A model generated the notes under the pieces. That model searched no databases, was not told the DNA's origin, and was given only the letters and a program-made list of their open reading frames with translations. This document shows, in pieces, positions 16,588 through 32,433 of a DNA stretch of 64,000 nucleotides. This DNA comes from Deltaproteobacteria bacterium. GTDB lineage: Bacteria; Myxococcota; Kuafuiibacteriia; Kuafuiibacteriales; Kuafuiibacteriaceae. How positions within the stretch are numbered: the stretch's first letter is position 1; each line of letters opens with the position of its first letter. Location: contig JAVJQW010000070.1 in NCBI GenBank assembly GCA_040218735.1, positions 64,001 to 128,000 on the forward strand. Direction: 5' to 3'. The translations under genes were made by a program, and so were the position numbers.

Positions 16588-17822
16588 GCACCTCGGAAGA
16601 CGACGCCCCCACGCTGCGCTGGGCGGTGCTCGCGCTGCTCGGGCTGCTGATGTTCGGCAGCTACTACGGCTACGACGCGATCGCGCCGCTCGCCGAGATC
16701 CTCGGACGTGAGCTCGGGTTCACGGACACCCAAATCGGCGGGCTCAACGCGATCTACTCCGCGCCCAACGTGGTCATGGTGCTCGTCGGCGGCGTCCTCG
16801 TGGATCGCATTGGCCTGCGCCGCGTGATCCTCGGAACGTCGATCGTCCTGTGCGCCGGTGCGTTCCTCACCGCCGCGCGCCCCGACTACGCGATGATGGC
16901 CGCGGGGCGTCTGCTGTTCGGCCTCGGCGCGGAGACGATGATCATCGCGGCGACGACCGCCATCGGGCTGTGGTTCGCGAAGAAACACCTCGCGCTCGCG
17001 ATGGCGATCGCCGTGAGCCTCGCGCGCGCCGGTTCGTACGCCGCGGACGTCTCACCGGCGTGGGCACCCGAGCTCTACGCGGCGGGTTGGCGTCCGCCGC
17101 TCCTCGTCGCCGCCGGGTTCGCGACGCTCGGTCTGGTGGGGGCGGTCGGCTACCTGTTCGTCGCGCGACGCGCGGAGCTCGGCGCCAAGGAGCGCGCCGA
17201 GCGCTTCGAGTGGAGGACGCTCCTGAAGCTCGGTCCGCGTTACTACATCCTCGTCGCGACCTGCGTCCTGTTCTACGCGACCATCTTCCCGTTCCGCAGC
17301 ACGTTCGCCGTGAAGTACTATCAGCACGCGCACGGGCTCTCGCTCGAGGACGCGAGCACGACGAACGGCATCGTGTTTTTGACCGCCGTCGTCGCGACGC
17401 CAATCTTCGGGGCGCTGGTGGATCGGTTGGGGCGCCACCGCGCGTGGCTCGTCGGCGGTGCGCTCGTCCTGCTGCTCGCGTTCGTCCTGCTGCTCACCCG
17501 CGCCGACCCGCGGATCGCGACCGCCCTGCTCGGGATCAGCTTCGCGCTGGTCCCGGCCGTGTTGTGGCCCGCCGTCGCGCTGACGGTGGAGCCCCACCGC
17601 CTCGGCACCGCCTACGGCTTGATGGCAATGCTCCAGAACCTCGGCCTCACCGCGGCCAACGTCATCGCGGGCCGAATCAACGACGCGTCGGGCGCGGGCG
17701 CCGCCGACCCCGGCGCCTACCGTCCGATGCTGTTGTTCTTCACCGCGCTCGCGCTCGGGGCCGCAGTCACGGCGGGCGCCGGTTTGATTCGCGGACGTCG
17801 AGAGACGATCAGAGGTACTTAG
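16584..17822 (+). CDS. MFS transporter (resembles the MFSD1-like subfamily)
   Basis: About 12 TM segments; motif A GVLVDRIGLRR and GALVDRLGRHR; FGSYYGYD; GRLLFGLGAE. Confidence 0.92.
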   Translation: MSTSEDDAPTLRWAVLALLGLLMFGSYYGYDAIAPLAEILGRELGFTDTQIGGLNAIYSAPNVVMVLVGGVLVDRIGLRRVILGTSIVLCAGAFLTAARPDYAMMAAGRLLFGLGAETMIIAATTAIGLWFAKKHLALAMAIAVSLARAGSYAADVSPAWAPELYAAGWRPPLLVAAGFATLGLVGAVGYLFVARRAELGAKERAERFEWRTLLKLGPRYYILVATCVLFYATIFPFRSTFAVKYYQHAHGLSLEDASTTNGIVFLTAVVATPIFGALVDRLGRHRAWLVGGALVLLLAFVLLLTRADPRIATALLGISFALVPAVLWPAVALTVEPHRLGTAYGLMAMLQNLGLTAANVIAGRINDASGAGAADPGAYRPMLLFFTALALGAAVTAGAGLIRGRRETIRGT

Positions 17823-19072
17823 AAGTACTTGATCGTGTTCGTGACGAGGTCGCGAGCGACCTCCTCCGGGGCGACGCCCTTCTTCTGCGCCACGACCCGG
17901 ATCTTCTCGAACTCCGCGGGCGACAGGTTGAGCTCGAGGGTGTGCCGCGCGCCGTTCTCCTGACGGATCGACGAGTCCACGACGATGAGCGCGGCGGACT
18001 TGTCGCTGCCTTCCTTCGCCTTGCCCACGGCCTCGCCGACCATGACGTCGTGTTTGCCGGTCGCCGGCACCGGCGGCGGCGTCTTTCCGCGACGCGCCTT
18101 CGCAGCCTCCGCGGATCGTTCGCGCTCGCGTTCGATCTCGTCCGCGAAGATCTGCTTCATGAAGTTCGCGAGGTGCGTGTTCGTCGGCGTGAACGCAGCG
18201 ACGGTGTGCAGCCACTGCTGGATGTCGAACTGCATGTCGCGCGCGGTCTGGTAGCGCTCCTCGCGATCCTTCGCGAGCGCCTTCATGAGAATCGCCTCGA
18301 TGCCCTCCGGGATGTCCTCGCGGAAGTACGACGGCGGATAGATCCGGCCGTCGATGATCGACTTGAGGATCGCCATCTCGTTCTCGCCGGTGAAGAGCTT
18401 GTAGCCGGTGATCCACTCGTAGAGGACGACGCCGAGCGTGAAGATGTCGGACCGCTCGTCGAGCTTCTTCCCCATCCCCTGCTCCGGGGACATGTACGAG
18501 AGCTTGCCCTTGATCTCGCCGGCCTTGGTCTGGTCGGTCTGCGAGTTCGCCTTCGCGATCCCGAAGTCGAGGATCTTCACGTTCCCGTTCCAACCGACCA
18601 TCACGTTCTCGGGCGTGATGTCGCGGTGGACGATGTTGAGCGGCTCGCCGAAGTCGTCGGCCTTGGTGTGCGCGTACGCGAGGCCGTCCAGGACGCGCTC
18701 GCCGATCGCGAAGGCGTACTCGATCGGGAACGTGATCCCGAGCTTCTCGGCCTTCGGGATCACACGCGACATGTCCCGACCCGAGATGTACTCCATCGCG
18801 ATGTAGAAGCTGTCGTTGATCTTGCCGAGGTCGAAGATCTGGACGACATGCGGATGTTGCAAACCTGCGGCGAGTTTCGCCTCGAACAGGAACATCTTGA
18901 GAAAGGCGTCCTCGTTCGACAGGTGCGGACGAATGCGCTTGATCGCAAACGTCTTCTCGAAGCCCTCGAGCCCCGGGCGCACGGCGAGGAAGACCTCCGC
19001 CATACCGCCGACCGCGATCCGCTCGAGGAGCTTGTATTTCCCAAACCAGACGGGTGCGTTTCGGGAGACCAA
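17819..19072 (-). CDS. Cytoplasmic Ser/Thr protein kinase with putative C-terminal ribbon-helix-helix domain
   Basis: Motifs GGMAEV, AIKRI, HRDITPEN, DFG, YMSPEQ; no TM; start (TTG) uncertain. Confidence 0.9.
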   Translation of the reverse strand: MVSRNAPVWFGKYKLLERIAVGGMAEVFLAVRPGLEGFEKTFAIKRIRPHLSNEDAFLKMFLFEAKLAAGLQHPHVVQIFDLGKINDSFYIAMEYISGRDMSRVIPKAEKLGITFPIEYAFAIGERVLDGLAYAHTKADDFGEPLNIVHRDITPENVMVGWNGNVKILDFGIAKANSQTDQTKAGEIKGKLSYMSPEQGMGKKLDERSDIFTLGVVLYEWITGYKLFTGENEMAILKSIIDGRIYPPSYFREDIPEGIEAILMKALAKDREERYQTARDMQFDIQQWLHTVAAFTPTNTHLANFMKQIFADEIERERERSAEAAKARRGKTPPPVPATGKHDVMVGEAVGKAKEGSDKSAALIVVDSSIRQENGARHTLELNLSPAEFEKIRVVAQKKGVAPEEVARDLVTNTIKYF

Positions 19073-19494: not shown

Positions 19495-22400
19495 ATGTAC
19501 TCCACGCACGCAAGCACAACTGAAACAAAGGGGGTCGGCCTCGCCCGGCTCCTGACGACATCCGCCGCATTTGCGGCCGCGCTCACCTGGGCTCCCCAGG
19601 CGAACGCAGAGATCGCGGTGATCTCCACCGCACCGGTGGTCTATACACCGCTGGCCAACCCGACCGTCCTGACCACGTCGGACGACGACTCGGTCTTCCA
19701 GGTCACCTCGCCGTTCCCCATCCGGTTCTACGAGCAGCAGACGACGACGTTGGGCGTGAGCACCAACGGCACGATGACGATGGACGGCTCCGCGATTTCC
19801 TACACGAACATCGCGATGGGCACGACGAGCACGCCGAACAACGTGCTCGCCCCGTGGTGGGACGACCTCCGTCTCAACGCGGCCAACAACGGCCGCATCG
19901 CGCACGCGACGCTCGGCACGGCACCCAACCGGACGTTCGTCGTCGAGTGGCACCTCGTGAGCGAGTGGGGCAACGACCCGTCGACGTTCTCGATGCAGGT
20001 CCACTTCCACGAGGGTGACGCGATGAACTTCGACATCCACTACGGCCCGACCGGGAACAGCCCCGCGTTCTCGGCGACCGCGGGGATGGAGAACAGCCAG
20101 GGGATGATCCCGTTCATCTTCCCGGCCTCGCAGTGCACCACCCTCTGCAGCGCGACCGACTTCGCGGCCCTGTCGGGCAACATGGTCACCGTGCAGAGCG
20201 GACCGGCGCCGTCGCTGCTCGTCTCGCTCGGCAACGCACCCGCGAACCTCCCGACCGGCGGCACCGCGATGGGCGACCTCACGCTCACGAACCTGGGTAC
20301 GAACGACGCCGTGGGCACGCTGACGTCGGTCTACCTGTCGTCGGACACGACGCTGGACGCCATGGACACCCTCGTCGGCACCGCGACGACCACCATCCCG
20401 TATGGCAACACGACCACGCCGGTCACGCTGACGATCCCGGCCAACGCCACGCTCGGGAACAACTACCTCATCGCCGTGGTCGACTCGAACGACCAGTTCT
20501 CGGAGGACTTCGAGAACGACAACACCGCGACCACCGTCGTCTCCGTCGGTTCGGACGTCGCGGCCGCCGCGCTGCGCGTGACGAACGGCGCCGCGGGCAT
20601 CAACGGCGGCGCGCCGATCGACTTCGAGGTCGACATCGCGCAGGCCGGCTTCCCGTACGCGGGCGGCGTCGACATCACGTTCTACGCGTCGGTCGACACG
20701 CTGTTCGACGCGATGGACACGCCGATCGACACGGCGTCGTTCAACCTCACGGGTGACCCCACCGAGACGCTGAACCACACGGCGACCTTCCCGGTGCTGC
20801 CCCCGGGCCAGTACTACGCGATCGCGCACATCGACCCGATGGACGTGCTCCCGGAGACGAACAACAACAACAACTTCGGAACGACGACGTTCTCGTTCAA
20901 CAGCGGCCCGGACTTCACGGTCGACACCGTGACGATCCCGCGCGGCCTGTTGCCCGGTGACACCGGTACGATCGCGACCAAGGTCGACAACGTCGCCGTC
21001 CCGTTCACGGGGCCCGTGCCGTACACGCTCTACCTCTCCGAGGACGGCGTCATCGACATGATGGACACGGTGATCGGCAACTACGTCATCAACTTCGCCG
21101 GTCAATCGAACATCGTCGACAACCAGTCGTTCATGGTGCCGGCGTCGCCGCTCGGCTATTACAACGTCATCGCCGAGGTCGACCCGGCGGCCGCGATCGT
21201 CGAGGCCTCCGAGATGAACAACGTGCAGGTGTCGTCGAACCCGGTCGCGAACGCGGTCGACTTCGCCGCGGCCCTCGCGACCTCGAGCCCGAGCACGGTC
21301 GAGGTCGGTGATCCGGTCAACGTCACCGCGGAGATCTCCAGCGACGGCGTCTCCTTCGTCGGCAACGTGCCCTTCCAGGTGCACCTGTCGCCCGACCCGA
21401 TCTTCGACCCCGGTGATCCGGCCGTCTACCGCGGCTTCGTGTTCTTCCCCGGCGGCAACGGCTCCGGTCAGATCGACGTCACGTTCCCGCTGCAAGCCCT
21501 CCCCGGTCAGCCCGCGCTCATCGCCGGTGGCTTCACGGTGTTCGTGGTCGTCGACCCGGACAACACCACGATGGAAGCGGACGAGATGAACAACGCCGGC
21601 CCGGCCAACTCGATCACCATCGAGGGCGCCGACCTGGTCGTGAACTCGATCAGCGGCGCGGCCACCGCGTTCATCGGCCTCCCCTACGAGGTCACGATGA
21701 ACGTCTCGAACGTCGGCGTCGCCGACGCGCGTGCCTTCCGTTACGCGTTCTACATGTCCGACAACGACATCATCCGCGTCACCGACCGCCGGGTGTTCGT
21801 GTCGAGCACGGCGACCATCGCCTCGGGGGACAGCGAGCAGTTCACGGACTCGTTCACCATCCCGACCTTCACGTCCACGCGCACGCAGTACCTCGGCGTC
21901 ATCGTCGACATCTTCTCGGTCGTCCCGGAGACCTCCGAGACGAACAACGCGCGCCGCATCGTGAACCCGATTACCGTCGTGTTCCCGATTCCGGATCTGC
22001 GCGCGGAGATCGTCGGCACAGCGACCGCGGCCGCCGCGGGTGAGGATCTGTCGATCACGCGCATCCTCGAGAACGTCGGCGTCGCACCTTCGGGTGCGTT
22101 CGAGTACAGCTATTACCTGTCCACGAACGCGCAGATCGCGACGGACGACATCCTCCTCGGGACGTTCAACAGCGCATCCCTCGCCGAGGGGAACGACGAC
22201 TACGGCGTCGACACCGTGACCATCCCGCCGTCGGTGATGGAGTCGAACTACTACGTCGGCATGATCGTCGACCCGAACGATCAGGTCGACGAGGTCGACG
22301 ACACGATCGAAGGCAACACGGCGCTCGGCCCGCAGATCCCGGTCTACCGGTCCACGCTGCAGTTCCAGACGGACGCGCTCCCGGCCGGCACCATCGGCGT

Positions 22401-25400
22401 GCCGTACGAGACGGCGGTGTACGCCACCGGCGGTCCGCTGCCGATCACCTGGGCCATCCAGACCGGCAACCTCCCGCCGGGCCTCGAGCTCGACGCGGCG
22501 TCGGGGATCATCTCCGGCACGCCGACCGACGAGGGCAACTACGAGTTCGCGGTCCGGGCGCTCTCCGGCACGGCCTACGCGGAGCGGACCTTCCAGGTGC
22601 GCATCACGTCGCCGACGGTGCAGCTCGCCATCGCGACGCCGACGCTGCCCTCGGGCATCGCCGGTCGCCCCTATCGCGCGGACCTGATCGCGGTCGGCGG
22701 CACGGTGCCGTACACCTGGTCGGTCATCTCGCAGCTCCCGACGGGCCTCGAGCTCGCGCCGAACGGCACGCTCAGCGGCGAGCCGCGGACGCCGGGCAAC
22801 TTCGGCCTCACGGTCAGCGTGCGCGACGCGGTCGGCAACACCGCCACCCGCATGGTCGCGCTGAACATCACCAACGCGAACCAGACGATCCAGATCTCGC
22901 AGCTCCCGCTGCCGACCGCCGAGGTCGGTGAGGAGTACTGCGATCCGGAGCCCGTCCTGTTCGGGGCGGAGAACGGCGTGGGGCCGTACTCGTGGTCGAT
23001 CGTCGGCGACGCACCTCCCGGGATGCGCGTCGAATCGAACGGCGAGCTTTGTGGCGTGCCGACGCAGGTCGGTGAATTTGGTTTCGTGGTTCGCGCGCAG
23101 GATTCGACGGGTCTGTTCGACACGTCCCTGTTCGTGCTCGAGGTGACGGACGGCGACGACCTCGCCATCTCCACCTTCAACCTCGATCCAGGAGAGGTGG
23201 GTAAGATGTACACGCAAGACTTGACCGCCATCCGCGGGACGCAGCCCTACGCTTGGTCGGTGGTGACCGAGTGGGGCCCGATCGCGCCCGGCCTCGCGCT
23301 CAGCGAGGATGGCTTCCTCAGCGGCACGCCGACGTCGGACGGCACGTTTGCTTTCGTGGTCCGCGTCGTCGACGCCGCGGGTCGCCAGGACATCCAGACG
23401 CTCACGATCGTCATCGACCCCGCGCCGGTTCCGCCGGAGGACGACTCGGGTTGCTCGTGCGCGGCCACCGAGACGGAAGACACGTCGCCGTGGACGAACG
23501 CGATGATGCTGCTCGGCCTGGGCGGTCTCGTGGCGCTCCGTCGGAAGAAGAAGTCGATCGCGGCGCTGTTCGCGGCGGCGGTGACGATGGCGGCTCCGAG
23601 CTTCGCCGAGGCCCAGTGCCCCGCGCCGGAGTTCGCAGTGACCTCCGAGCCGCTGACCAACTACACGATGCTGCCGAGCCCGACGACGATCACCACGAAC
23701 TCCGACGACGGGGTCTTCGCGGTGACGTTGCCGTTCCCGTTCAGCTACTTCGGGACGAACCACACGTCGGTGCGCATCAGCGCCAACGGCGCCGTGCTGT
23801 TCCCGCCGCAGACGAGCATGACGTTCGTGAACGCCGCCCTCGGCGACGACTCGTACGACACCTCGATCTTCGCCTTCTGGGACGACCTCGACCTGAACTC
23901 CGGCACGGGTAACCTGATCGGCTACCAGGTGCAGGGGACGGCGCCGAACCGGACGATCACGTTCGAGTGGCGGAACATCAACCACCACTCGTACTCGGCG
24001 TGGACGGTGAACTTCCAGGTGCGCCTCTTCGAGGGGCCGCTCGGGAAGATCGAAGTCGACTACTCGACGCAGACCGGTAGCGGCTCGCCGACGGCGACGA
24101 TGGGGATCGAAAACGACAACGCGACGATCATCATCCCCTTCACCAACCCCGACTGCAGCCCGTCCTGCGGCAACGCGGACTGGCCGACGAACACGCGGCT
24201 GACCATTCAGCGTGGGCCCGAGGTCTACGCGGTCGGCGTCGATGCGCCCGGCGTGGCGTTCCTCGGCGCGCAGGCGCAGGTCCCGGTCACGGTGTGCACG
24301 CCGTACACCCAGCCGATCGGGTTGTTCACGGTCGACGTCATCGCGTCGATGACCCAGAACATGATGAACCCGGTGCTGATCGGTCAGGGCCAGACGTCCC
24401 TCGGCGCGAACGGTCAGGCGACGTTCAACGTGACCACGACCATCCCCACCATGTTCGGCGAGAACCCGATCTACATGGGGATGATCGCGGACTCGGGCAA
24501 CGTGATCGCGGAGATCGACGAGACGAACAACACGGCGGTCGCTCCGGCGCCGACGCGGTTGATCGTCGGCCTGCCGGACCTCGCGGTGCAGCGGGTTCGC
24601 ATCTCGAACCGCAACATCAACGCGGGCGACACGTTCGACGTCTACACCACGGTGCAGAACGTCGGCGGTGAGCCGGCCGCGAACGCCGACGTCGCGATCC
24701 TGCTGTCGACCAACCCGGTCATCAGCCGGCAGGACGTGCTGCTCGACCAGTACACGGTGTCGCTGGAGGCGGGTGAGTCCGTGACCACGACGACGAGCGT
24801 GACGATCGACGCGATGACGAACTCCGGCACGTACTACATCGGTGCGTACGCGGACTACAACTCGTCCGTCGAGGAGCTCGCGGAGTCGAACAACGGCCGC
24901 TCCGACATCGGCACGCTCACCGTCACGGGCGGCGCGCTCGCCGTCGCGACGACGCGGTTGCCCGGCGGGTACGTCGGCATCTCCTACAGCGCGTCGTTCG
25001 TCGCGGCGGGCGGGGACGATTCGGATCGCACCTGGGAGATCACGCAGGGCTCGCTCCCGGACGGCCTCGACATCGTCCCGAGCACCGGGGAGATCTATGG
25101 TCGCCCGACCACGCCCGAGACGCAGACGTTCACCGTGCAGGTGACGTCCGGCGGCGAGACCGCGACGCGGCAGCTGATGATGACGGTGGCGGATCCCAGC
25201 GAGCCGCTCACGATCGTGACACGCTCCCTCGCGGCGGGTGTCGTCGGACAGGAGTACAGCTTCCCGATCGTCGCGACCGGCGGCGGGACGGAGACGAGCT
25301 CGCTGACGTGGAGCAGCTCCGGCCTCCCGGACGGCTTCGAGGTCACGCCGATGGGCGTCCTCATCGGCACGCCGATGACGGCCGGCAGCAGCACCGTGAC

Positions 25401-26157
25401 GATCACGGTGAGCGACGGCACGGACACGACGTCGCGCGACATGACGCTGAGCATTCGCGACAACGCGAACCTGCTCATCGTTCCGCGGGTCCTCTCGACC
25501 GCGCGCTTCGGCGAGGCGTACTCGGAGCAGCTCGAGACGACGGGCGGCAACGCGCCGATCACGTTCCTCATGGGCGAGATCGGGCAGATTCCGCCGGGCC
25601 TCACGCTCGCGCCGGACGGCTCGATCACCGGTGAGCCGACGCTGGTCGGTCGCTATCGCTTCGAAGTCGTGGCGCGCGACTCGGGCATCGGCCCGGCCGC
25701 GGCGACGGACACGAACACGTTCGTCATCGACGTCGTGAACACCGACGGCTTCTCGATCATCACGAGCGAGCTGCCGGAGGGCATCGTCGGCCAGGGTTAC
25801 GAGGGAACCATCGAGGCCAGCGGCGGCCTGCCGCCGTACACGTGGACGATCCGCGAGGGTCGCCTCCCGGACGGCCTGCTCGCCGACACGAACAGCGAGG
25901 GCAAGTACCAAATCGCCGGTCAGCCGATGGAGTCGGGCCTGACGAGCCTCCTGGTCGAGGTTCGGGACAGCCAGGCGCGCACCGCGGTCCGTGCGTTGGC
26001 GCTCTCGGTCCTGGAGACGGCGCCCGTGGTCGTGGACCCGAAGATGGGCACCGACGATGGGTGCGGATGCACGGCGTCCGAGTCGCGCACCGGCTACGGC
26101 TGGGCGGTCCTCGGCCTGCTGGGCGTCGCGCTCCTCGCTCGGCGTCGCCGGTCCTGA
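19495..26157 (+). CDS. Giant surface protein with two complete modules, each with a NIDO-like head, CARDB-like repeats, putative Ig (He_PIG-like) repeats and a MYXO-CTERM; candidate polyprotein
   Basis: N-terminal signal (ANA|E); module 1 has 6 CARDB-like (E..E.NN) and 4 Ig repeats; internal GCSC...LLGLGGLVALRRKKK followed by a signal ending AEA|Q; module 2 has 2 CARDB-like and 4 Ig repeats; terminal GCGC...VLGLLGVALLARRRRS. Confidence 0.9.
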   Translation: MYSTHASTTETKGVGLARLLTTSAAFAAALTWAPQANAEIAVISTAPVVYTPLANPTVLTTSDDDSVFQVTSPFPIRFYEQQTTTLGVSTNGTMTMDGSAISYTNIAMGTTSTPNNVLAPWWDDLRLNAANNGRIAHATLGTAPNRTFVVEWHLVSEWGNDPSTFSMQVHFHEGDAMNFDIHYGPTGNSPAFSATAGMENSQGMIPFIFPASQCTTLCSATDFAALSGNMVTVQSGPAPSLLVSLGNAPANLPTGGTAMGDLTLTNLGTNDAVGTLTSVYLSSDTTLDAMDTLVGTATTTIPYGNTTTPVTLTIPANATLGNNYLIAVVDSNDQFSEDFENDNTATTVVSVGSDVAAAALRVTNGAAGINGGAPIDFEVDIAQAGFPYAGGVDITFYASVDTLFDAMDTPIDTASFNLTGDPTETLNHTATFPVLPPGQYYAIAHIDPMDVLPETNNNNNFGTTTFSFNSGPDFTVDTVTIPRGLLPGDTGTIATKVDNVAVPFTGPVPYTLYLSEDGVIDMMDTVIGNYVINFAGQSNIVDNQSFMVPASPLGYYNVIAEVDPAAAIVEASEMNNVQVSSNPVANAVDFAAALATSSPSTVEVGDPVNVTAEISSDGVSFVGNVPFQVHLSPDPIFDPGDPAVYRGFVFFPGGNGSGQIDVTFPLQALPGQPALIAGGFTVFVVVDPDNTTMEADEMNNAGPANSITIEGADLVVNSISGAATAFIGLPYEVTMNVSNVGVADARAFRYAFYMSDNDIIRVTDRRVFVSSTATIASGDSEQFTDSFTIPTFTSTRTQYLGVIVDIFSVVPETSETNNARRIVNPITVVFPIPDLRAEIVGTATAAAAGEDLSITRILENVGVAPSGAFEYSYYLSTNAQIATDDILLGTFNSASLAEGNDDYGVDTVTIPPSVMESNYYVGMIVDPNDQVDEVDDTIEGNTALGPQIPVYRSTLQFQTDALPAGTIGVPYETAVYATGGPLPITWAIQTGNLPPGLELDAASGIISGTPTDEGNYEFAVRALSGTAYAERTFQVRITSPTVQLAIATPTLPSGIAGRPYRADLIAVGGTVPYTWSVISQLPTGLELAPNGTLSGEPRTPGNFGLTVSVRDAVGNTATRMVALNITNANQTIQISQLPLPTAEVGEEYCDPEPVLFGAENGVGPYSWSIVGDAPPGMRVESNGELCGVPTQVGEFGFVVRAQDSTGLFDTSLFVLEVTDGDDLAISTFNLDPGEVGKMYTQDLTAIRGTQPYAWSVVTEWGPIAPGLALSEDGFLSGTPTSDGTFAFVVRVVDAAGRQDIQTLTIVIDPAPVPPEDDSGCSCAATETEDTSPWTNAMMLLGLGGLVALRRKKKSIAALFAAAVTMAAPSFAEAQCPAPEFAVTSEPLTNYTMLPSPTTITTNSDDGVFAVTLPFPFSYFGTNHTSVRISANGAVLFPPQTSMTFVNAALGDDSYDTSIFAFWDDLDLNSGTGNLIGYQVQGTAPNRTITFEWRNINHHSYSAWTVNFQVRLFEGPLGKIEVDYSTQTGSGSPTATMGIENDNATIIIPFTNPDCSPSCGNADWPTNTRLTIQRGPEVYAVGVDAPGVAFLGAQAQVPVTVCTPYTQPIGLFTVDVIASMTQNMMNPVLIGQGQTSLGANGQATFNVTTTIPTMFGENPIYMGMIADSGNVIAEIDETNNTAVAPAPTRLIVGLPDLAVQRVRISNRNINAGDTFDVYTTVQNVGGEPAANADVAILLSTNPVISRQDVLLDQYTVSLEAGESVTTTTSVTIDAMTNSGTYYIGAYADYNSSVEELAESNNGRSDIGTLTVTGGALAVATTRLPGGYVGISYSASFVAAGGDDSDRTWEITQGSLPDGLDIVPSTGEIYGRPTTPETQTFTVQVTSGGETATRQLMMTVADPSEPLTIVTRSLAAGVVGQEYSFPIVATGGGTETSSLTWSSSGLPDGFEVTPMGVLIGTPMTAGSSTVTITVSDGTDTTSRDMTLSIRDNANLLIVPRVLSTARFGEAYSEQLETTGGNAPITFLMGEIGQIPPGLTLAPDGSITGEPTLVGRYRFEVVARDSGIGPAAATDTNTFVIDVVNTDGFSIITSELPEGIVGQGYEGTIEASGGLPPYTWTIREGRLPDGLLADTNSEGKYQIAGQPMESGLTSLLVEVRDSQARTAVRALALSVLETAPVVVDPKMGTDDGCGCTASESRTGYGWAVLGLLGVALLARRRRS

Positions 26158-26174
26158 CGTCCCCGCGGGCTCGG

Positions 26175-26198
26175 GTGGTCCGGCTTCGGCCGGGCCAC
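26175..26198 (+). terminator. Stable hairpin after the giant ORF (terminator or mRNA stabiliser)
   Basis: GTGGTCCGGC-TTCG-GCCGGGCCAC, a 10-bp stem with a cUUCGg loop; no immediate U-tract. Confidence 0.5.
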
Positions 26199-26283
26199 AC
26201 GCCGCCCCACCCCGCCTTTTAGGCGCGCTCCGCGCGAATTCTCGTTCCCGACCCCGATCCTTCCTGCTAGCCTGCCGCGGTCC

Positions 26284-28896
26284 ATGACACGCCGCGCACT
26301 ACGCACGCTCGCACTCTCGGTCTCGGTTCTTGGCGGTCTCACGCTCGCGCGCCCCGCGTTCGCGCAGCTCGTCCCCGGGACGCCCTACCAACTATCCCGC
26401 ACGCCGATCACGTATCAGCCGCTGTCGAGCCCGACGGTGATCTGGACCGACGTCGACGACAGCGGCGCCACGGTCACGCTGCCGTTCCCGGTGACGTACT
26501 ACAACACGACGCTCACGAGCCTGGCCGTCGACTCGAACGGCGCGATCGGCTTCCCGGGCGGGACCTCCGTCACGCGCTTCAACCGCGCGCCCGGAACGCC
26601 CGGGACCCCCGCCGGGGTGATCGGCGTCTTCTGGACGGACCTCGAGCTGAACCCCGCGACGGGGAACTACGTCGGCTGGCAGGTCGAGGGGACCGCGCCG
26701 AACCGCACGATCACGATCGAGTATCGCAACATCAGCTTCTACTTCGATGCGGCGAGCAACATGAGCATGCAGGTGCGCTTCTACGAGGGCGCGTCGGGCC
26801 GCATCGACATCGACTACGGCACGCTCGTCGGCACGCGCTCGAACGTCGTGATGGGCATGGACAACCCGATGAACATGCAGCCGATCCTGTTCCCGGTCAG
26901 CCAGTGCACCAACAACTGCACGAACACGGACTGGCCGACGAACACGCGCATCAGCGTCACGCAGGACCCGGGCGTGGAGCTCGTCGCCGCCTCGGTCGAG
27001 GCGCCGGAGTTCGGCTTCCTCGGCGCGCAGACGCAGGTGCCGGTGACGGTGCAGAGCCTCCACGGGAACGCGATTGGCCCGTTCACGGTCGAGGTCGTCG
27101 CCTCGCAGACGCAGAACCTCGCCAACCCGATCTCGATTGGGACCGCGACGATGAACCTCGGTCCGTTCGAGCGCGAGACGCTCAACGTCACGACGGTCCC
27201 TCCGCAGTCGCTCGGCGTGGGCGCGGTGTACCTGGGCCTCAACGTGGACTCGAACGACGACATCACGGAGGTCGACGAGACGAACAACACGATCGCTTCG
27301 CTGACGCCCATCCGCCTCATTCAGGGTGCGGCGGACCTCGCGGTGCAGCGCGTGCGGACGTCGCAGTCGATGATCGCCTCCGGCGACACGATCGACGTGA
27401 CGACGACGGTCCAGAACGTCGGCGGTGAGCCGGCGCCGGCGACGGACGTCGCGATCATGCTGTCGACCAACCCGGTCATCAGCGCGCAAGACGTCTTGCT
27501 CGACACCTACTCGGTGACGCTCTCGGACGGCGAGATCGACATGACGACGCGCCCGGTGACGATCCCGGCGCAGACGAACTCCGGCACGTACTACATCGGC
27601 GCGCTCGCGGATCCGATGCGCACGCTGACGGAGCTGTCGGAGTCGAACAACGGCCTCGCGGACGACAACGTGCTCGTCGTCGCGGGTGGCGCGCTCGCGA
27701 TCACCACGTCGCGCCTCCCGGCCGCGGCGATCCAGATCCCGTACAACGTGCTGATGCAGGCCGTGGGCGGCGACGCCAACGACCGCACCTGGTCGATCTC
27801 GGCGGGGAGCCTTCCGAACGGCCTCGATATCAGCATGAACACCGGGGAGATCTTCGGCCGGCCCACGATGGCGCAGATGAGCCAGTTCACCGTCCAGCTC
27901 GTTTCGGGCGGCGAGACGGCGACGCGCCAGCTGACGCTCACGGTGAACGACCCGACCGAGCCGCTCACGATCGTTACGCGCACCATCGCGGACGCCGTCG
28001 TCGGGCAGGAGTACACGTTCCCGCTCGTCGCTACGGGCGGCGCAGGGACCAGCTCCGTCGCATGGACCGCGACCGGCCTCCCGGACGGGTTCGCGATCGC
28101 GAGCAACGGAGTCATCGCGGGGACGCCGATGATGGCAGGTTCGAGCACGATCACCGTGATGGCGTCGAAGGGTGCCGAGACCGCGTCGCGCAACCTGAAC
28201 CTCCGTGTCCGGAACAACGCCGGCCTCCTCATCGTGCCGGAGGTGCTCCCGACGGCGCAGTTCGAGGTCGCCTACTCCGCGCAGCTGTCCTCGACGGGCG
28301 GGGTGCAGCCCATCCTCTGGACGGTCGACCAGGGCCAGCTCCCGGCGGGGCTCGCGCTGACGACGGACGGCGAGATCTCCGGCACCCCGCTGCAGGCGGG
28401 CCGCTTCTCCTTCGTGGTGGCGGCGCGTGACTCCACGCCGGGCAACCCGGCGACGGACGCGAACACGTTCGAGATCACCGTCGATGACGATGGCGGCCTC
28501 ACGATCCCGACGGCGATGCTCCCCGAGGGCGTCATCAACACCGGCTACGACGCTTCGATCGAAGCGATGGGCGGCACGCCGCCGTACAGCTGGCGCGTCG
28601 TCGAGGGCCGCATCCCGACGGACTTCGTCGCGACGCCCAACGCGGAGGCGACGGCGTTCCAGATCCGCGGTCAGACGACCGAGGCGGGCACGAGCAACTT
28701 CATCGTCGAGGTGATGGACAGCGCGAACCGCACCGCCGTGAAGGCGTTCTCGATTCGCATCCTGGAGACCGCGCCGGTCGTCGAGATGCCTCCGGTGGAC
28801 GAGGGCTGCAGCTGCACCGAGACCGAGGGTCGCGGCAGCGCGAGCGCCCTGCTCCTCCTCGTCGGCCTCTTCGTGGTCGCCCGTCGGCGTCGCTGA
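26284..28896 (+). CDS. MYXO-CTERM surface protein (NIDO-like head, 2 CARDB-like, 4 putative Ig), paralog of module 2 of the upstream ORF
   Basis: Signal ending AFA|Q; collinear with aa 1374-2220 of the upstream ORF; ends EGCSC...LLLLVGLFVVARRRR. Confidence 0.92.
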   Translation: MTRRALRTLALSVSVLGGLTLARPAFAQLVPGTPYQLSRTPITYQPLSSPTVIWTDVDDSGATVTLPFPVTYYNTTLTSLAVDSNGAIGFPGGTSVTRFNRAPGTPGTPAGVIGVFWTDLELNPATGNYVGWQVEGTAPNRTITIEYRNISFYFDAASNMSMQVRFYEGASGRIDIDYGTLVGTRSNVVMGMDNPMNMQPILFPVSQCTNNCTNTDWPTNTRISVTQDPGVELVAASVEAPEFGFLGAQTQVPVTVQSLHGNAIGPFTVEVVASQTQNLANPISIGTATMNLGPFERETLNVTTVPPQSLGVGAVYLGLNVDSNDDITEVDETNNTIASLTPIRLIQGAADLAVQRVRTSQSMIASGDTIDVTTTVQNVGGEPAPATDVAIMLSTNPVISAQDVLLDTYSVTLSDGEIDMTTRPVTIPAQTNSGTYYIGALADPMRTLTELSESNNGLADDNVLVVAGGALAITTSRLPAAAIQIPYNVLMQAVGGDANDRTWSISAGSLPNGLDISMNTGEIFGRPTMAQMSQFTVQLVSGGETATRQLTLTVNDPTEPLTIVTRTIADAVVGQEYTFPLVATGGAGTSSVAWTATGLPDGFAIASNGVIAGTPMMAGSSTITVMASKGAETASRNLNLRVRNNAGLLIVPEVLPTAQFEVAYSAQLSSTGGVQPILWTVDQGQLPAGLALTTDGEISGTPLQAGRFSFVVAARDSTPGNPATDANTFEITVDDDGGLTIPTAMLPEGVINTGYDASIEAMGGTPPYSWRVVEGRIPTDFVATPNAEATAFQIRGQTTEAGTSNFIVEVMDSANRTAVKAFSIRILETAPVVEMPPVDEGCSCTETEGRGSASALLLLVGLFVVARRRR

Positions 28897-28932: not shown

Positions 28933-31900
28933 TCACCGCGTCGAGAAGACGTCGCTCGCTTCGAGCTCGTGACGAACGAGCTTTTTCAAACGCACGTTCT
29001 GTGAGGCCTGCACCAGGTCCTCGGCGCGCTCCAGCGAGATCTTCGCGCGGTTTTCGTCGCCCTGCGCGCGGTAGACCCGGCCCGACTGGACGAGGCCCTC
29101 GATCTGGAGCGTCTCGTTCTCCAGCGCTTCCGCGATCTCCAGGCCCGCCTCGATGTGTTCGATCGCTTCGGTGAAGCTGTCGTAGTTCTTCTCGATGGCG
29201 ACGGCGCCCAAGTAGATCTGCGCCCAGCCCTCGTAGAGCGAGAAGCCGATCTCGCGAGAGATCGCGAGGCAGCGCATGAGCTCCGCCGCGGCGCGCTCCG
29301 GTCGATCCGAGCGGGCGTGGTGAATCCCGAGCTCACCGTGCCAGGTGGCCTGACCCTGACGGCTCCCGGTCTCCTTCGCAATCGACAGGGCCTGCTGCAG
29401 CTTCTCCGTCGCGCCCTCGTCGTCGCCGAGGTTCGACATGAGGCTCCCGAGGGCACCCGACCAGCGCTCGAGATCTCGGCGGACCCCCCGAGCCTCCGCA
29501 AGCTCGATCGCCTCGGAGAAACACGCGAGCGCCTCGGACTCGTTGCCGCGCGCGGCGTGCACCTCGCCGATGTGGCCGAGCAGATCCGACAACGCGCGGG
29601 TGTCGCCGCGTCGCCGCGCGGTGGACAGACCGCCCTCGAGCTTCTCGAGCGCGCCCACGAAGTCCCCCTGGAAGAGCAAGACGACCCCGACGCGCCCGTC
29701 GAGCTCGTCCGCGAGCTCGTCGAGGCCGGCGTCCTGGGCGATCTGGTGCGCGGACTCCAGCACCGCCCTCGCCTGCCCGTACTCCGCCCGCGACATCCGC
29801 GTGGCGCCCTCCAGCGCGAGGAAGCGCGCGCCGAGGGAACGCGTCGGCGCGGGGCGCGGGACGGAGAGGAGCGTTGCGAGGGTCTCGTCGAGGCGCCCCA
29901 AGGCAAACTGGCTCGCGGCGCGGCGCAGGACGAGCTCGGCGCTCATGACCTCGGGCGCGCGGGCGTTGAGCGCCGCCTGCGGGTCGGCGCGTTCGAGCGC
30001 TTCCTTCGGACGGCCGAAGTCCAAGAGCAGATCGATCTGGAGCAGGAGCAGCCGGAGGCGTCGGGTCCCGCTCGCCGGCGTGCGCGGCGCGTCGTCGATC
30101 ACCGCGGTGGCGTCCTGGATGCGTCGCATCGCGGCGTCGATGTCCCCGCGCGTCGACGCCGCACGCGCCATCATCTCGAGGTACCGCACCGCGCGTAGCG
30201 GGCTCCCGCCGGCTCGGAAGTGCCGCGCAAGGACGTGCGCGAGCTCCGCCCGGCGCGTCGAGAAGCGGCGCTCCAACCGGTGCGCGATGCGCAGGTGCAG
30301 GTGCGCGCGCGGCTCGGCCGGCAACGCGCGGGTGACGGCCTCCCTGAACCCCTCGTGATAGAACCGGTAGCGCACACCGTCGTGGGAGACGTCCTCCATC
30401 AGGAGGTTCGCCCGCACCAGCTCGTCCATCGCGTCGAGGAACGCGTCCTCCTCGAGCTCGGCCACCGCGGACACGAGGTCCGCCGGCAACAGGCGCCCCA
30501 GAAGCGCGAGGCGTTCGAGGAGCTCCCGCGACCGCGGCTGTAGGCGCTCGAGCTTCGCCAACGCGGCGTCGTCCCCGCGGGTCGGTCGCGGCCGCCGCGC
30601 GCGGGTCGGCGGTCGTTCGGACACGGCGACCGGCACCGCGTCACGCGGCGTGACGTCGTCGACCGCCGGTGTGCCGTGCGCGGGTGTGACGTCCTCGACC
30701 TCCTCGGACTCGAGCGCTTCGTCCTTGTAGAACCACGTGCCTCGACGACGCTCGAGGACGCGCTCGCTGACCCAGGACTCCATGACCTCCTGCACCATCA
30801 ACGGGCGGCCGTGAGTCACGCGCACGAGCTCGTCCACGAACTTGCGCAGCGGGCGGTGCACGCCGGTCATCGTGCGCACCATGTCGAGGACGCCGGTCGC
30901 GGGGATCGGGCGCATCGTGAGGCGGTGCAGCCCGCTCCGTTCGTCGAGGCGACGTACGAGCTGCTCCGACTGGTCGGGCCCCTCCGCCAGCGAGCGGCGC
31001 GTCAGGATGATCGCGACCGGGCACACCGTCTCGTCCGACTTCCCGCGCGGCCGAGGCGCGAGCAGCGTCCGTGCGGCGTCCCACAGCAGCTCGAGCGTCG
31101 ATGAGTCGGCCCAGTGCAGATCTTCGATCGCGAGGATCGTCGGCCGCGTGAGCGCGAGCCGGCCCATCACCCCGACGATCGCCTTGTGCAGGCGGACCTT
31201 TCGCTCGGAGGCGTCGAGGTGCTCCGTCGTCGCGGGCCCGCCGAGGCGCGCGAGGCGCGGCGACACCGCATGCACCAACGCCGCGTCGCGCCCCACGATC
31301 TTGCGCACCACGTCGTTGGGCGCCTTCGACGCGATCGACTCGATCTCGTCGAGCACCGTCTCGATCGGCGCGTAGGCCTGCGACGGCTCGGGCTGGCACG
31401 GCCCGATGACCATGTTCATCTTGCGCCGAACGCGGCCCTTCAGCTCCTGCAGCAGGCGGCTCTTGCCGATCCCGCTGGGGCCCTCGATCAACATCAGCTG
31501 GCCGCGGCCCGCGGCGGTGGACTCTGCGAGCTCGATGAGCGCGTCCAGCTCGTCACCGCGCGCGACGAAGCGCGGCGCGAACAGCTGCCCCGGGAGCGAC
31601 GACTCGACCTGCGAGCTCGTTTGTTCGTCGTCGGTCAGATACGAGAACGCCTCCTCGGCGGTCTGCAGGCGATCGAGCGGGTCCTTTTCGAGGAGCTTCT
31701 GCGTCAGCGCCGCGAGCGTCGGGTCGGCCTTGTCGTTGACCTCGAGGACGTGGGTCGGCTTCGTGTTGACGTGGTGGTGCAGCGCCGCCGCCGGAGGCTC
31801 GACGGGGAACGGGTAGTCGCCCGCGAGCACCTCGTACATCAGCACGCCGACGGCGTAGAGATCCGAACGACCGTCGATCTCCCCGCTCGTGACCTGCTCG

Positions 31901-32433
31901 GGCGCCATGTACGCGAAGGTCCCGAGGAGCCCGCTGCTGCTCGTCGGCGCGCGAAGCAGCCGCGCGACGCCGAAGTCCATCAGCTTCACGCGCCCGTCGC
32001 TGCACACCAGGATGTTCTCGGGTTTGAGATCGCGGTGGACGATCCTGCGCACGTGGATGTGCGCGAGCGCGCCGAAGATCTGCCGCAGGCAGCGCCGCAT
32101 CTCGCGATCGCGCACCGGCCCCTCCGGGAGCGCGCGCAGGTGACGGCGCACGTCCTTCCCATCGAGGAACTCCATCGCGATGAACGGGACGTCGTCCTCG
32201 ATGCCCGCGTCGAGGACGCGGACGATGTTCGGGTGCCTCAGGCGGGCGAGCGCGCGGAACTCACGTTTGAATCGAAGGACACCCTCGGCCTCCTCCGCAG
32301 CGTGCGGAAGGAGGACCTTCAGCGCGATGCGGCTGCCGTCACGGGTGTCGTTCGCCTCGTAGACGACACCCATCCCGCCCGCGCCGACGCGTTTGACGAG
32401 ACGATAACGTCCGATGGTGGTCGGTGCGGCCAT
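28933..32433 (-). CDS. Ser/Thr kinase - AAA/STAND ATPase - TPR multidomain protein
   Basis: Kinase GAGGMG, HRDLKPEN, DFG, APE; Walker A GPSGIGKS; Walker B AIEDLHWAD; YRFYHE; C-terminal TPR-like helices. Confidence 0.92.
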   Translation of the reverse strand: MAAPTTIGRYRLVKRVGAGGMGVVYEANDTRDGSRIALKVLLPHAAEEAEGVLRFKREFRALARLRHPNIVRVLDAGIEDDVPFIAMEFLDGKDVRRHLRALPEGPVRDREMRRCLRQIFGALAHIHVRRIVHRDLKPENILVCSDGRVKLMDFGVARLLRAPTSSSGLLGTFAYMAPEQVTSGEIDGRSDLYAVGVLMYEVLAGDYPFPVEPPAAALHHHVNTKPTHVLEVNDKADPTLAALTQKLLEKDPLDRLQTAEEAFSYLTDDEQTSSQVESSLPGQLFAPRFVARGDELDALIELAESTAAGRGQLMLIEGPSGIGKSRLLQELKGRVRRKMNMVIGPCQPEPSQAYAPIETVLDEIESIASKAPNDVVRKIVGRDAALVHAVSPRLARLGGPATTEHLDASERKVRLHKAIVGVMGRLALTRPTILAIEDLHWADSSTLELLWDAARTLLAPRPRGKSDETVCPVAIILTRRSLAEGPDQSEQLVRRLDERSGLHRLTMRPIPATGVLDMVRTMTGVHRPLRKFVDELVRVTHGRPLMVQEVMESWVSERVLERRRGTWFYKDEALESEEVEDVTPAHGTPAVDDVTPRDAVPVAVSERPPTRARRPRPTRGDDAALAKLERLQPRSRELLERLALLGRLLPADLVSAVAELEEDAFLDAMDELVRANLLMEDVSHDGVRYRFYHEGFREAVTRALPAEPRAHLHLRIAHRLERRFSTRRAELAHVLARHFRAGGSPLRAVRYLEMMARAASTRGDIDAAMRRIQDATAVIDDAPRTPASGTRRLRLLLLQIDLLLDFGRPKEALERADPQAALNARAPEVMSAELVLRRAASQFALGRLDETLATLLSVPRPAPTRSLGARFLALEGATRMSRAEYGQARAVLESAHQIAQDAGLDELADELDGRVGVVLLFQGDFVGALEKLEGGLSTARRRGDTRALSDLLGHIGEVHAARGNESEALACFSEAIELAEARGVRRDLERWSGALGSLMSNLGDDEGATEKLQQALSIAKETGSRQGQATWHGELGIHHARSDRPERAAAELMRCLAISREIGFSLYEGWAQIYLGAVAIEKNYDSFTEAIEHIEAGLEIAEALENETLQIEGLVQSGRVYRAQGDENRAKISLERAEDLVQASQNVRLKKLVRHELEASDVFSTR

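Follow-up and report, generated by a model that had tools for sequence, protein, structure and literature searches.

The window, a 64,000-nucleotide stretch from the draft genome of a Deltaproteobacteria bacterium (contig JAVJQW010000070.1, positions 64,001 to 128,000), carries on its forward strand an open reading frame (ORF) at 19495..26157 that starts with ATG and encodes 2220 amino acids (aa), with two complete surface-protein modules in a single, stop-free frame. Between the modules, a C-terminal sorting tag of the MYXO-CTERM type and an N-terminal signal peptide, the usual markers of the end and the start of a protein, stand back to back in the middle of the gene. On sequence comparison, the ORF is likely a real and conserved precursor of two surface proteins, processed via an out-in-out membrane hairpin. 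Because relatives keep the layout, separate anchored proteins are probably cut from one precursor; their release is further suggested by the conserved residues at the processing sites and by the interchange of fused and split forms, and both cleavages are predicted together with a 1:1 ratio of the products. The computational tests favoured the polyprotein and the hairpin that a first-pass annotation had proposed from the letters, the cleavages standing as predicted steps.

The junction occupies aa 1319-1374 (23449-23616), and the ORF list and translation gave the same reading of it as the first-pass annotation. It opens with the MYXO-CTERM signature G-C-S-C at aa 1319-1322 (23449..23460), the presumed site of myxosortase action and lipidation as judged from the translation and a 13-junction alignment, followed by a 10-aa acidic and Thr-containing linker. 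A 16-aa hydrophobic stretch, the internal sorting-tag helix or first transmembrane helix (TM1; aa 1333-1348, 23491..23538), is a predicted stop-transfer sequence running from out to in. The basic turn RRKKK (aa 1349-1353, 23539..23553) is predicted to be cytoplasmic and to have two roles, closing the sorting tag as its tail and providing the n-region for the signal peptide that comes next. It passes into an uncharged 20-aa stretch comprising the h- and c-regions of the internal signal peptide (aa 1354-1373, 23554..23613), which ends in A-E-A, with a predicted signal peptidase I cut at 23613/23614 and Q1374 as the next residue; these segments were assigned from the translation and alignment. 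The layout of Cys motif, linker, transmembrane helix and Arg cluster (GCxC ... RRRR) is common to the internal tag and to the true C-termini of the polyprotein and of the next gene, as had been claimed. That next gene, gene 3 (26284..28896, +), is a free-standing paralog of 870 aa with its own signal peptide (predicted cut A-F-A|Q after aa 27) and a terminal MYXO-CTERM, according to the ORF list and alignment. From module 2 onward (aa 1374-2220, 847 aa), the polyprotein aligns over its full length with gene 3's mature product (442 of 849 positions identical, 52%, with 12 gaps), which bears out the earlier claim of collinearity.

The internal tag possesses the Cys signature of MYXO-CTERM and a hydrophobic helix followed by a basic cluster; 867 residues (aa 1354-2220) lie beyond that cluster, so that the tag is not at the extreme C-terminus. 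The internal signal has the basic n-region, the uncharged h-region and the small-x-small residues at -3/-1 of a Sec signal peptide for signal peptidase I, and begins at aa 1349 instead of at an N-terminus. Taken as a whole, the ORF has the form of a polyprotein, in which stop-transfer and signal sequences alternate between complete modules. Against TIGR03901 the polyprotein scored 42.8 bits (cut-off 20), with the best stretch at its terminal tag (2188-2219), and gene 3 scored 18.7 bits. Against TIGR03382, the whole-protein scan gave 16.3 bits versus a cut-off of 15.85, gene 3 gave 17.1 bits and the internal tag alone 11.5 bits. In proteins of relatives, the best TIGR03901 stretch was the internal tag itself (1302-1333 in public protein P0011; 3143-3174 in an ORF of the relative G011). 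An AlphaFold2 model of the junction segment contained two helices with a 6-residue turn, the helix at aa 1332-1348 being predicted at moderate confidence.

Conservation within the junction is concentrated at the presumed processing sites. In the 13-junction alignment, whose members are 27-42% identical to the window's junction, four junction positions alone were invariant, namely both Cys, the Ala at -1 and the Gln at +1; the Ala at -3 and the Gly preceding the first Cys were at least 90% conserved, and both hydrophobic helices varied freely. A wider alignment combined 19 junctions with 10 genuine N-termini taken from gene 3, the second genes of split pairs and the N-termini of first modules. 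There, the internal h-region and cut site shared columns with the true signal peptides, and the Arg cluster aligned with their basic n-regions, in agreement with the earlier suggestion that RRKKK doubles as an n-region. Small-x-Ala|Gln was found in all 19 junctions, and the true N-termini read A-x-A|Gln in nine of ten and A-N-A|Glu in the remaining one. The Gln after the predicted signal-peptidase site (23614-23616 and 26365-26367 in the window; loci L002-L009 and L039-L042) was thus present in 19/19 junctions and 9/10 N-termini. This +1 Gln recalls a 'Q-rule', with N-terminal pyroglutamate, that has reportedly been described for Bacteroidetes. Among 12 junctions, TM1 measured 13-20 residues, the basic turn 4-6 and the h- plus c-region 15-22; judged by sequence, this last length is that of a predicted signal peptide and not of a membrane anchor.

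These observations bear on the alternative that the two helices form a permanent membrane anchor, with the protein left whole or cut at one site and held in the inner membrane with two large periplasmic domains. Two hydrophobic helices with a short basic turn would make an ordinary membrane hairpin, and the low profile score of the window's internal tag, given below, agrees with such an anchor. However, a structural hairpin needs neither Cys-x-Cys nor small-x-Ala|Gln, and precisely these are invariant while the helices vary; in addition, the short h/c-region aligns with the N-terminal signals of free paralogs, and the repeated interchange between fused and split forms would be hard to square with different final products. 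We regard a permanent anchor as rather improbable.

The fusion was found to be kept well beyond the window. A junction search with aa 1150-1600 as the query was run on 41 genomes, namely that of the window (G000) and 40 relatives. Among the matches listed, which left a further 386 beyond them, at least 24 crossed the junction without a stop, in 9 of the 41 genomes, all in the window's taxonomic family. Sixteen stop-free junctions were read; they come from 8 genomes (G000, G004 and G006-G011) among the 20 that make up the window's family, and every one of them runs from a Cys motif through a helix, a basic turn and an h-region to small-x-Ala and Gln. The fusion is kept in seven other genera at 27-47% identity, with some loci syntenic. 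For G006 and G011, orthology of the loci rests on synteny: their copies of the upstream kinase have 77% and 73% identity, respectively, to that of the window, and in G011 the polyprotein has a 66%-identical counterpart of the 1166-aa kinase/TPR gene immediately downstream. Fused modules differ in number: there are two in the window and in G011 and three, plus a free fourth gene, in G006. A second G011 ORF (4051 aa) contains four modules and three internal junctions, and the corresponding open frame in G006 (3905 aa) also has three internal junctions. A recent deletion-fusion, which the first-pass annotation had kept as an alternative, does not agree with a fusion that is retained across genera at syntenic loci with two to four modules per ORF.

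Surveys of broader collections gave a similar picture within their scope. In a phylum sample of 301 genomes (E <= 1e-18, 10 candidates scored per genome), 20 of the 25 matches listed span the junction, all of them in the window's family. Among 120 listed matches to public proteins, 14 covered at least 86% of aa 1260-1460, and all 14 carry the junction; two of these have a second junction with a lipobox further on, and the other 106 hit the immunoglobulin-like (Ig) repeat alone. One public protein (P0003, 2214 aa) is 88% identical to the window's polyprotein and has the same junction. Reading of internal junctions gave three modules for P0011 and P0205 and four for P0149 and P0169. A profile search with the 13-junction alignment over 1.84 billion representatives placed the best stretch across the junction in three of the 150 proteins listed (P0149, P0169 and P0205, with three to four modules); this search was governed by the He_PIG repeat with which the profile begins, and it therefore yields no estimate of breadth. 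A search of genome contigs with the single protein as query returned 95 pattern matches, none of which was confirmed.

Fused and free states appear to have changed into each other repeatedly. A maximum-likelihood tree was built from 22 module N-terminal regions, after removal of one duplicate locus from the 23 initially taken; it includes neither the G004 module, which is truncated at the locus examined, nor L002, which is the L039 locus. On this tree, at least four changes between the fused and free states were counted. Modules at the same position in the four-module proteins of G006 and G011 paired with each other (support 100/100, 100/99 and 83/72), and the four-module chain therefore predates these two genera. 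Gene 3 is the sister of module 2 (support 96/98), which indicates, on the evidence of the tree, that a local duplication produced gene 3 and that its copy ended up free. Gene 3 shares the reading frame of the polyprotein and is separated from its stop by a 126-nucleotide spacer (26158-26283), and a third module matching gene 3 is fused in frame in G006 and in public protein P0011.

A second alternative is that module 2 is made mainly from an internal start, either ATG at 23503 or 23506, as the first-pass annotation had considered for ATGATG at 23503-23508, or GTG at 23530, so that the read-through fusion would be a tolerated by-product of a lost stop. In-frame ATG, ATG and GTG codons do lie inside the window's TM1, and, as no clear Shine-Dalgarno sequence precedes gene 3 either, the lack of one at the junction says little. 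An argument from Shine-Dalgarno sequences against internal initiation was dropped for this reason, GAGGGA being present upstream of ORF1 and nothing obvious at gene 3. The start codons are, however, not conserved among 12 junctions: two have no in-frame ATG, GTG or TTG from TM1 to the h-region, and three have a single candidate codon, located 12-16 codons upstream within TM1. The GTG at 23530 reads GTT in two independently assembled contigs, X2 and X3, through the synonymous change G23532T, and a protein initiated at ATG 23503 would begin with two hydrophobic segments and not with a signal peptide. Furthermore, there is no stop after module 1, so every ribosome that translates module 1 continues into module 2. 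Internal initiation as the main source of module 2 is very unlikely.

The reality of the sequence was examined with assembled contigs of public runs. The X2 contig (5405 nucleotides) and the X4 contig (8981 nucleotides), from different studies, span the whole of 23200-23900; the X3 contig reaches 23636, and a contig of 331 nucleotides from the RNA library X19 covers 23387-23717. None of the four contained an insertion or deletion within 23440-23620, and the contigs of other studies pass through the junction in frame. Nine sites vary in the junction, eight of them synonymous at third positions and one giving L1339M in TM1. Further downstream, X4 has four single-base indels within 12 nucleotides (23833-23844) that sum to zero and restore the frame. 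It is extremely improbable that the junction arose by an error of sequencing or assembly, or that two genes were recently joined by an inactivating deletion and became a pseudogene, since assemblies of other studies show the same in-frame junction with almost entirely synonymous variation, syntenic orthologs in other genera are fused and the 88%-identical protein is on record, even though the genome is a 70-contig draft with an estimated contamination of 4.65% and one junction elsewhere in it is followed by a frameshift after 56 aa.

Several points weigh against the proposal of a processed precursor. Scanned alone, the window's internal tag reaches only 15.2 bits with TIGR03901, below the cut-off of 20. 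The AlphaFold2 junction model is of modest confidence, with a predicted local distance difference test (pLDDT) score of 72.3 (local values 44-76) and a predicted template modelling score of 0.38; it is membrane-free and descriptive only. The sorting tag is defined as C-terminal, and here an extension of about 870 aa follows it. In favour of processing, MrtX removes a FLAG tag placed behind the MYXO-CTERM of TraA, and a C-terminal extension of the tag is therefore tolerated in that reported case (PMC11980579). In one genus (G005 and G014; L010 and L012), the two modules are separate adjacent genes in different frames, and the fusion is therefore not required; the ortholog comparison thus found the junction fused across genera and split in one. 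Outside the window's family, the phylum sample gave an adhesin-family junction in 0 of 281 genomes (E <= 1e-18, 10 candidates per genome). Finally, the sequence check rested on assembled contigs instead of raw reads, and the X19 contig may be derived from DNA despite its RNA library, so that it cannot show transcription.

The genome encodes the machinery that processing of the precursor would need. A myxosortase-core match to NF040914 scored 120.6 bits (cut-off 100), two signal peptidase I matches to TIGR02227 scored 144.7 and 134.9 bits (cut-off 47), and the type II secretin GspD scored 488 bits (cut-off 351); TIGR03901 has 52 matches in the genome (E <= 0.001). A mechanism was derived from the positive-inside rule and from the established Sec, signal peptidase I and MYXO-CTERM/MrtX pathways, and all of its steps after translation are predictions. 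In this scheme, the N-terminal signal would open the translocon, and module 1 would be exported across the inner membrane by Sec. The internal tag helix would then stop transfer while RRKKK remains cytoplasmic, and the following h-region would re-open the translocon for the export of module 2, so that an out-in-out hairpin results. Signal peptidase I would cut after A-E-A and free module 2 with Gln-1374 at its N-terminus, whereas myxosortase would cleave module 1 once its Cys motif is lipidated, in line with the proposal for TraA; the hairpin of about 50 aa would be discarded. Module 2 would be processed at its own terminal MYXO-CTERM, and both modules may reach the surface by the type II system, each on its own anchor. 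Fused and split forms would accordingly yield the same mature products, and the fusion would add obligatory co-expression and co-insertion.

The same kind of junction was also met in unrelated proteins of this genome. A regular expression for a Cys motif, a transmembrane helix, a basic cluster and an h-region with AxA or a lipobox was applied to 48,339 six-frame ORFs of at least 120 aa. It matched 17 ORFs, compared with 5 in reversed sequences and 1, 1 and 0 in three shuffles, and thus exceeded what chance would give. On inspection, 10 of the 17 were junctions of the tag-plus-signal kind and 7 apparently ordinary polytopic membrane proteins. With the strict C-x-C motif, the genome holds 73 terminal tags and 7 internal junctions. 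Unrelated partners are joined in this way: an Amidase_3 protein to a PD40-like part, a Trypsin protein to a Lectin_C lipoprotein, an Esterase_PHB protein with Ig domains to a small lipoprotein, and a DUF7948/SBBP/DUF11 protein to about 1000 residues without an assigned family. Four of the second signals have a lipobox Cys at their end in place of A-x-A. The protease-lectin fusion is kept with its lipobox in G004, G009 and G016, and the amidase fusion in G001 and G006; the esterase fusion is young, because it is represented by split abutting genes in G006 and G011.

Two individual loci of this genome deserve mention. At G000:C46:56019-62362 (-), a junction of the same kind is followed by a stop 56 aa later, and the module continues in another frame (962 aa, with a terminal MYXO-CTERM); either the polyprotein is frameshifted here or the sequence contains an error. 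L017 (G000:C42:461000-462591), which has no Pfam match, contains a single-Cys tag, a signal peptide and about 170 aa that resemble, by eye, a small outer-membrane barrel, a partner that would match the type published for MXAN_5598.

From this breadth of partners a model can be advanced, towards which we lean somewhat, that the tag-plus-signal pair is a general, portable cut-here connector of Myxococcota, by which two to four envelope proteins are co-translated, co-inserted at one translocon and separated by housekeeping proteases alone. According to this model, one basic turn would be shared by the stop-transfer and re-start helices, the second signal could be of the signal peptidase I or the lipoprotein type, fused and split states would interconvert freely, and the whole would be a cellular counterpart of viral glycoprotein polyproteins.

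An internal tag has one published precedent. ORFs rarely contain internal MYXO-CTERM motifs, and MXAN_5598 of Myxococcus xanthus was described as a probable gene fusion whose N-terminal part was proposed to be processed and surface-anchored (PMC11980579; Guo, Haft and Wall, mBio 2025). MXAN_5598 resembles the window's ORF in having the motif in the middle of the ORF, but its downstream part is an outer-membrane beta-barrel/OmpA protein and not a second MYXO-CTERM protein. In the passages of that paper on MXAN_5598, neither a signal peptide behind the tag nor a hairpin is mentioned, and there is no word of a survey of conservation or of chains with several modules; Table S1 of the paper may list more internal motifs. 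The first-pass annotation had known of no description of such an arrangement, which proves too broad for the internal tag and stands, as far as these passages go, for the signal peptide that follows it. The canonical MYXO-CTERM-myxosortase (MrtX) pathway of TraA (PMC11980579; bioRxiv 10.1101/2023.06.07.544157) shares the Cys signature, the transmembrane helix and the Arg-rich tail. The words 'internal', 'polyprotein' and 'fusion' are absent from the Haft preprint. Module 2 and gene 3 end in ordinary tags of the canonical type. The window's internal tag (23449-23553), unlike that of TraA, is not C-terminal; a signal peptide adjoins it directly, and 847 more residues come after that.

A literature search on internal signal peptides and polyproteins returned viral work and unrelated bacterial work on signal peptidase or the type IX secretion system, and no bacterial polyprotein cut at an internal signal peptide. 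A likeness lies in the viral envelope glycoprotein polyproteins of flavi-, pesti- and bunyaviruses, in which host signal peptidase cuts at internal signal sequences. These systems share with the proposed case a single translation product, alternating stop-transfer and signal sequences, release by signal peptidase and a fixed stoichiometry; the window's ORF differs in being a cellular bacterial gene, in that its stop-transfer sequence is a sorting tag for a second protease, myxosortase, and in that its modules are paralogous. HVO_0405 of Haloferax volcanii is said, in 2017 work by Abdul Halim and colleagues, to undergo ArtA-dependent processing at a tripartite structure located away from the C terminus. 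It would be alike in the internal position of a sorting-enzyme signal and different in being an archaeal PGF-CTERM/archaeosortase protein and a Tat substrate. The FbcH cytochrome b/c1 precursor of Bradyrhizobium japonicum is likewise said to be cut at an internal signal peptide. It would be similar as a bacterial polyprotein split at an internal Sec-type signal, and dissimilar as part of a respiratory membrane complex with neither a C-terminal sorting tag nor surface display. Sorting tag, signal peptide and one internal example were thus already known, and a conserved hairpin that would chain two to four surface proteins, as predicted here from sequence, was not described in the literature searched.

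Should the predicted cleavages take place, membrane polyproteins would be a bacterial route to surface proteins, with the housekeeping enzymes signal peptidase and myxosortase as the processing proteases. Current annotation treats each of these genes as encoding one 'putative Ig domain-containing' protein, and internal tags are overlooked when MYXO-CTERM substrates are counted at C-termini only. The junction is a natural test of whether myxosortase requires a C-terminal tag, and it could find use as a small cassette that yields two anchored proteins in a fixed ratio. A published assay in which MrtX is co-expressed in Escherichia coli (PMC11980579) makes the prediction directly testable.

The modules themselves share one layout, in which a signal peptide is followed by a tip domain, a stalk of CARDB and Ig-like repeats and a MYXO-CTERM. 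Module 1 begins with a Sec signal peptide at aa 1-38 (19495..19608, +), assigned from the sequence and alignment with other signal peptides, with a predicted cut at A-N-A|E. Its mature part, aa 39-1318 (19609..23448, +), consists of the tip domain, CARDB repeats and He_PIG Ig-like repeats according to the translation and Pfam. The mature part of module 2, aa 1374-2187 (23614..26055, +), has the same tip domain, CARDB and He_PIG order and is collinear with gene 3, and its terminal MYXO-CTERM, aa 2188-2220, occupies 26056..26157 (+) together with the stop codon. Pfam found CARDB and He_PIG repeats in the polyprotein and in gene 3 alike, with seven copies of each in the polyprotein. Each module has a tip domain of about 200 aa (23614-24300 in module 2) with two invariant Cys and a conserved N-G and W-x-D pattern. 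The AlphaFold2 model of the module 2 tip is all-beta (pLDDT 83.2). Pfam assigned no family to this tip at E <= 0.01, and a Foldseek comparison of the model with the PDB gave no match at E <= 0.001; NIDO (PF06119) is assigned only in the precomputed Pfam annotation of two relatives.

The adhesin locus is flanked by two Ser/Thr kinase genes on the reverse strand. The divergent upstream gene (17819..19072, -) encodes a Ser/Thr protein kinase (Pkinase, 130 bits) and is the conserved neighbour that marks the orthologous locus; the convergent downstream gene (28933..32433, -) encodes a 1166-aa protein with kinase, AAA_16 and TPR domains and was recognised as a conserved neighbour by domain scan and synteny with G011. 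Because both genes keep their flanking position in G006 and G011, a regulatory link between them and the adhesin locus is suggested.

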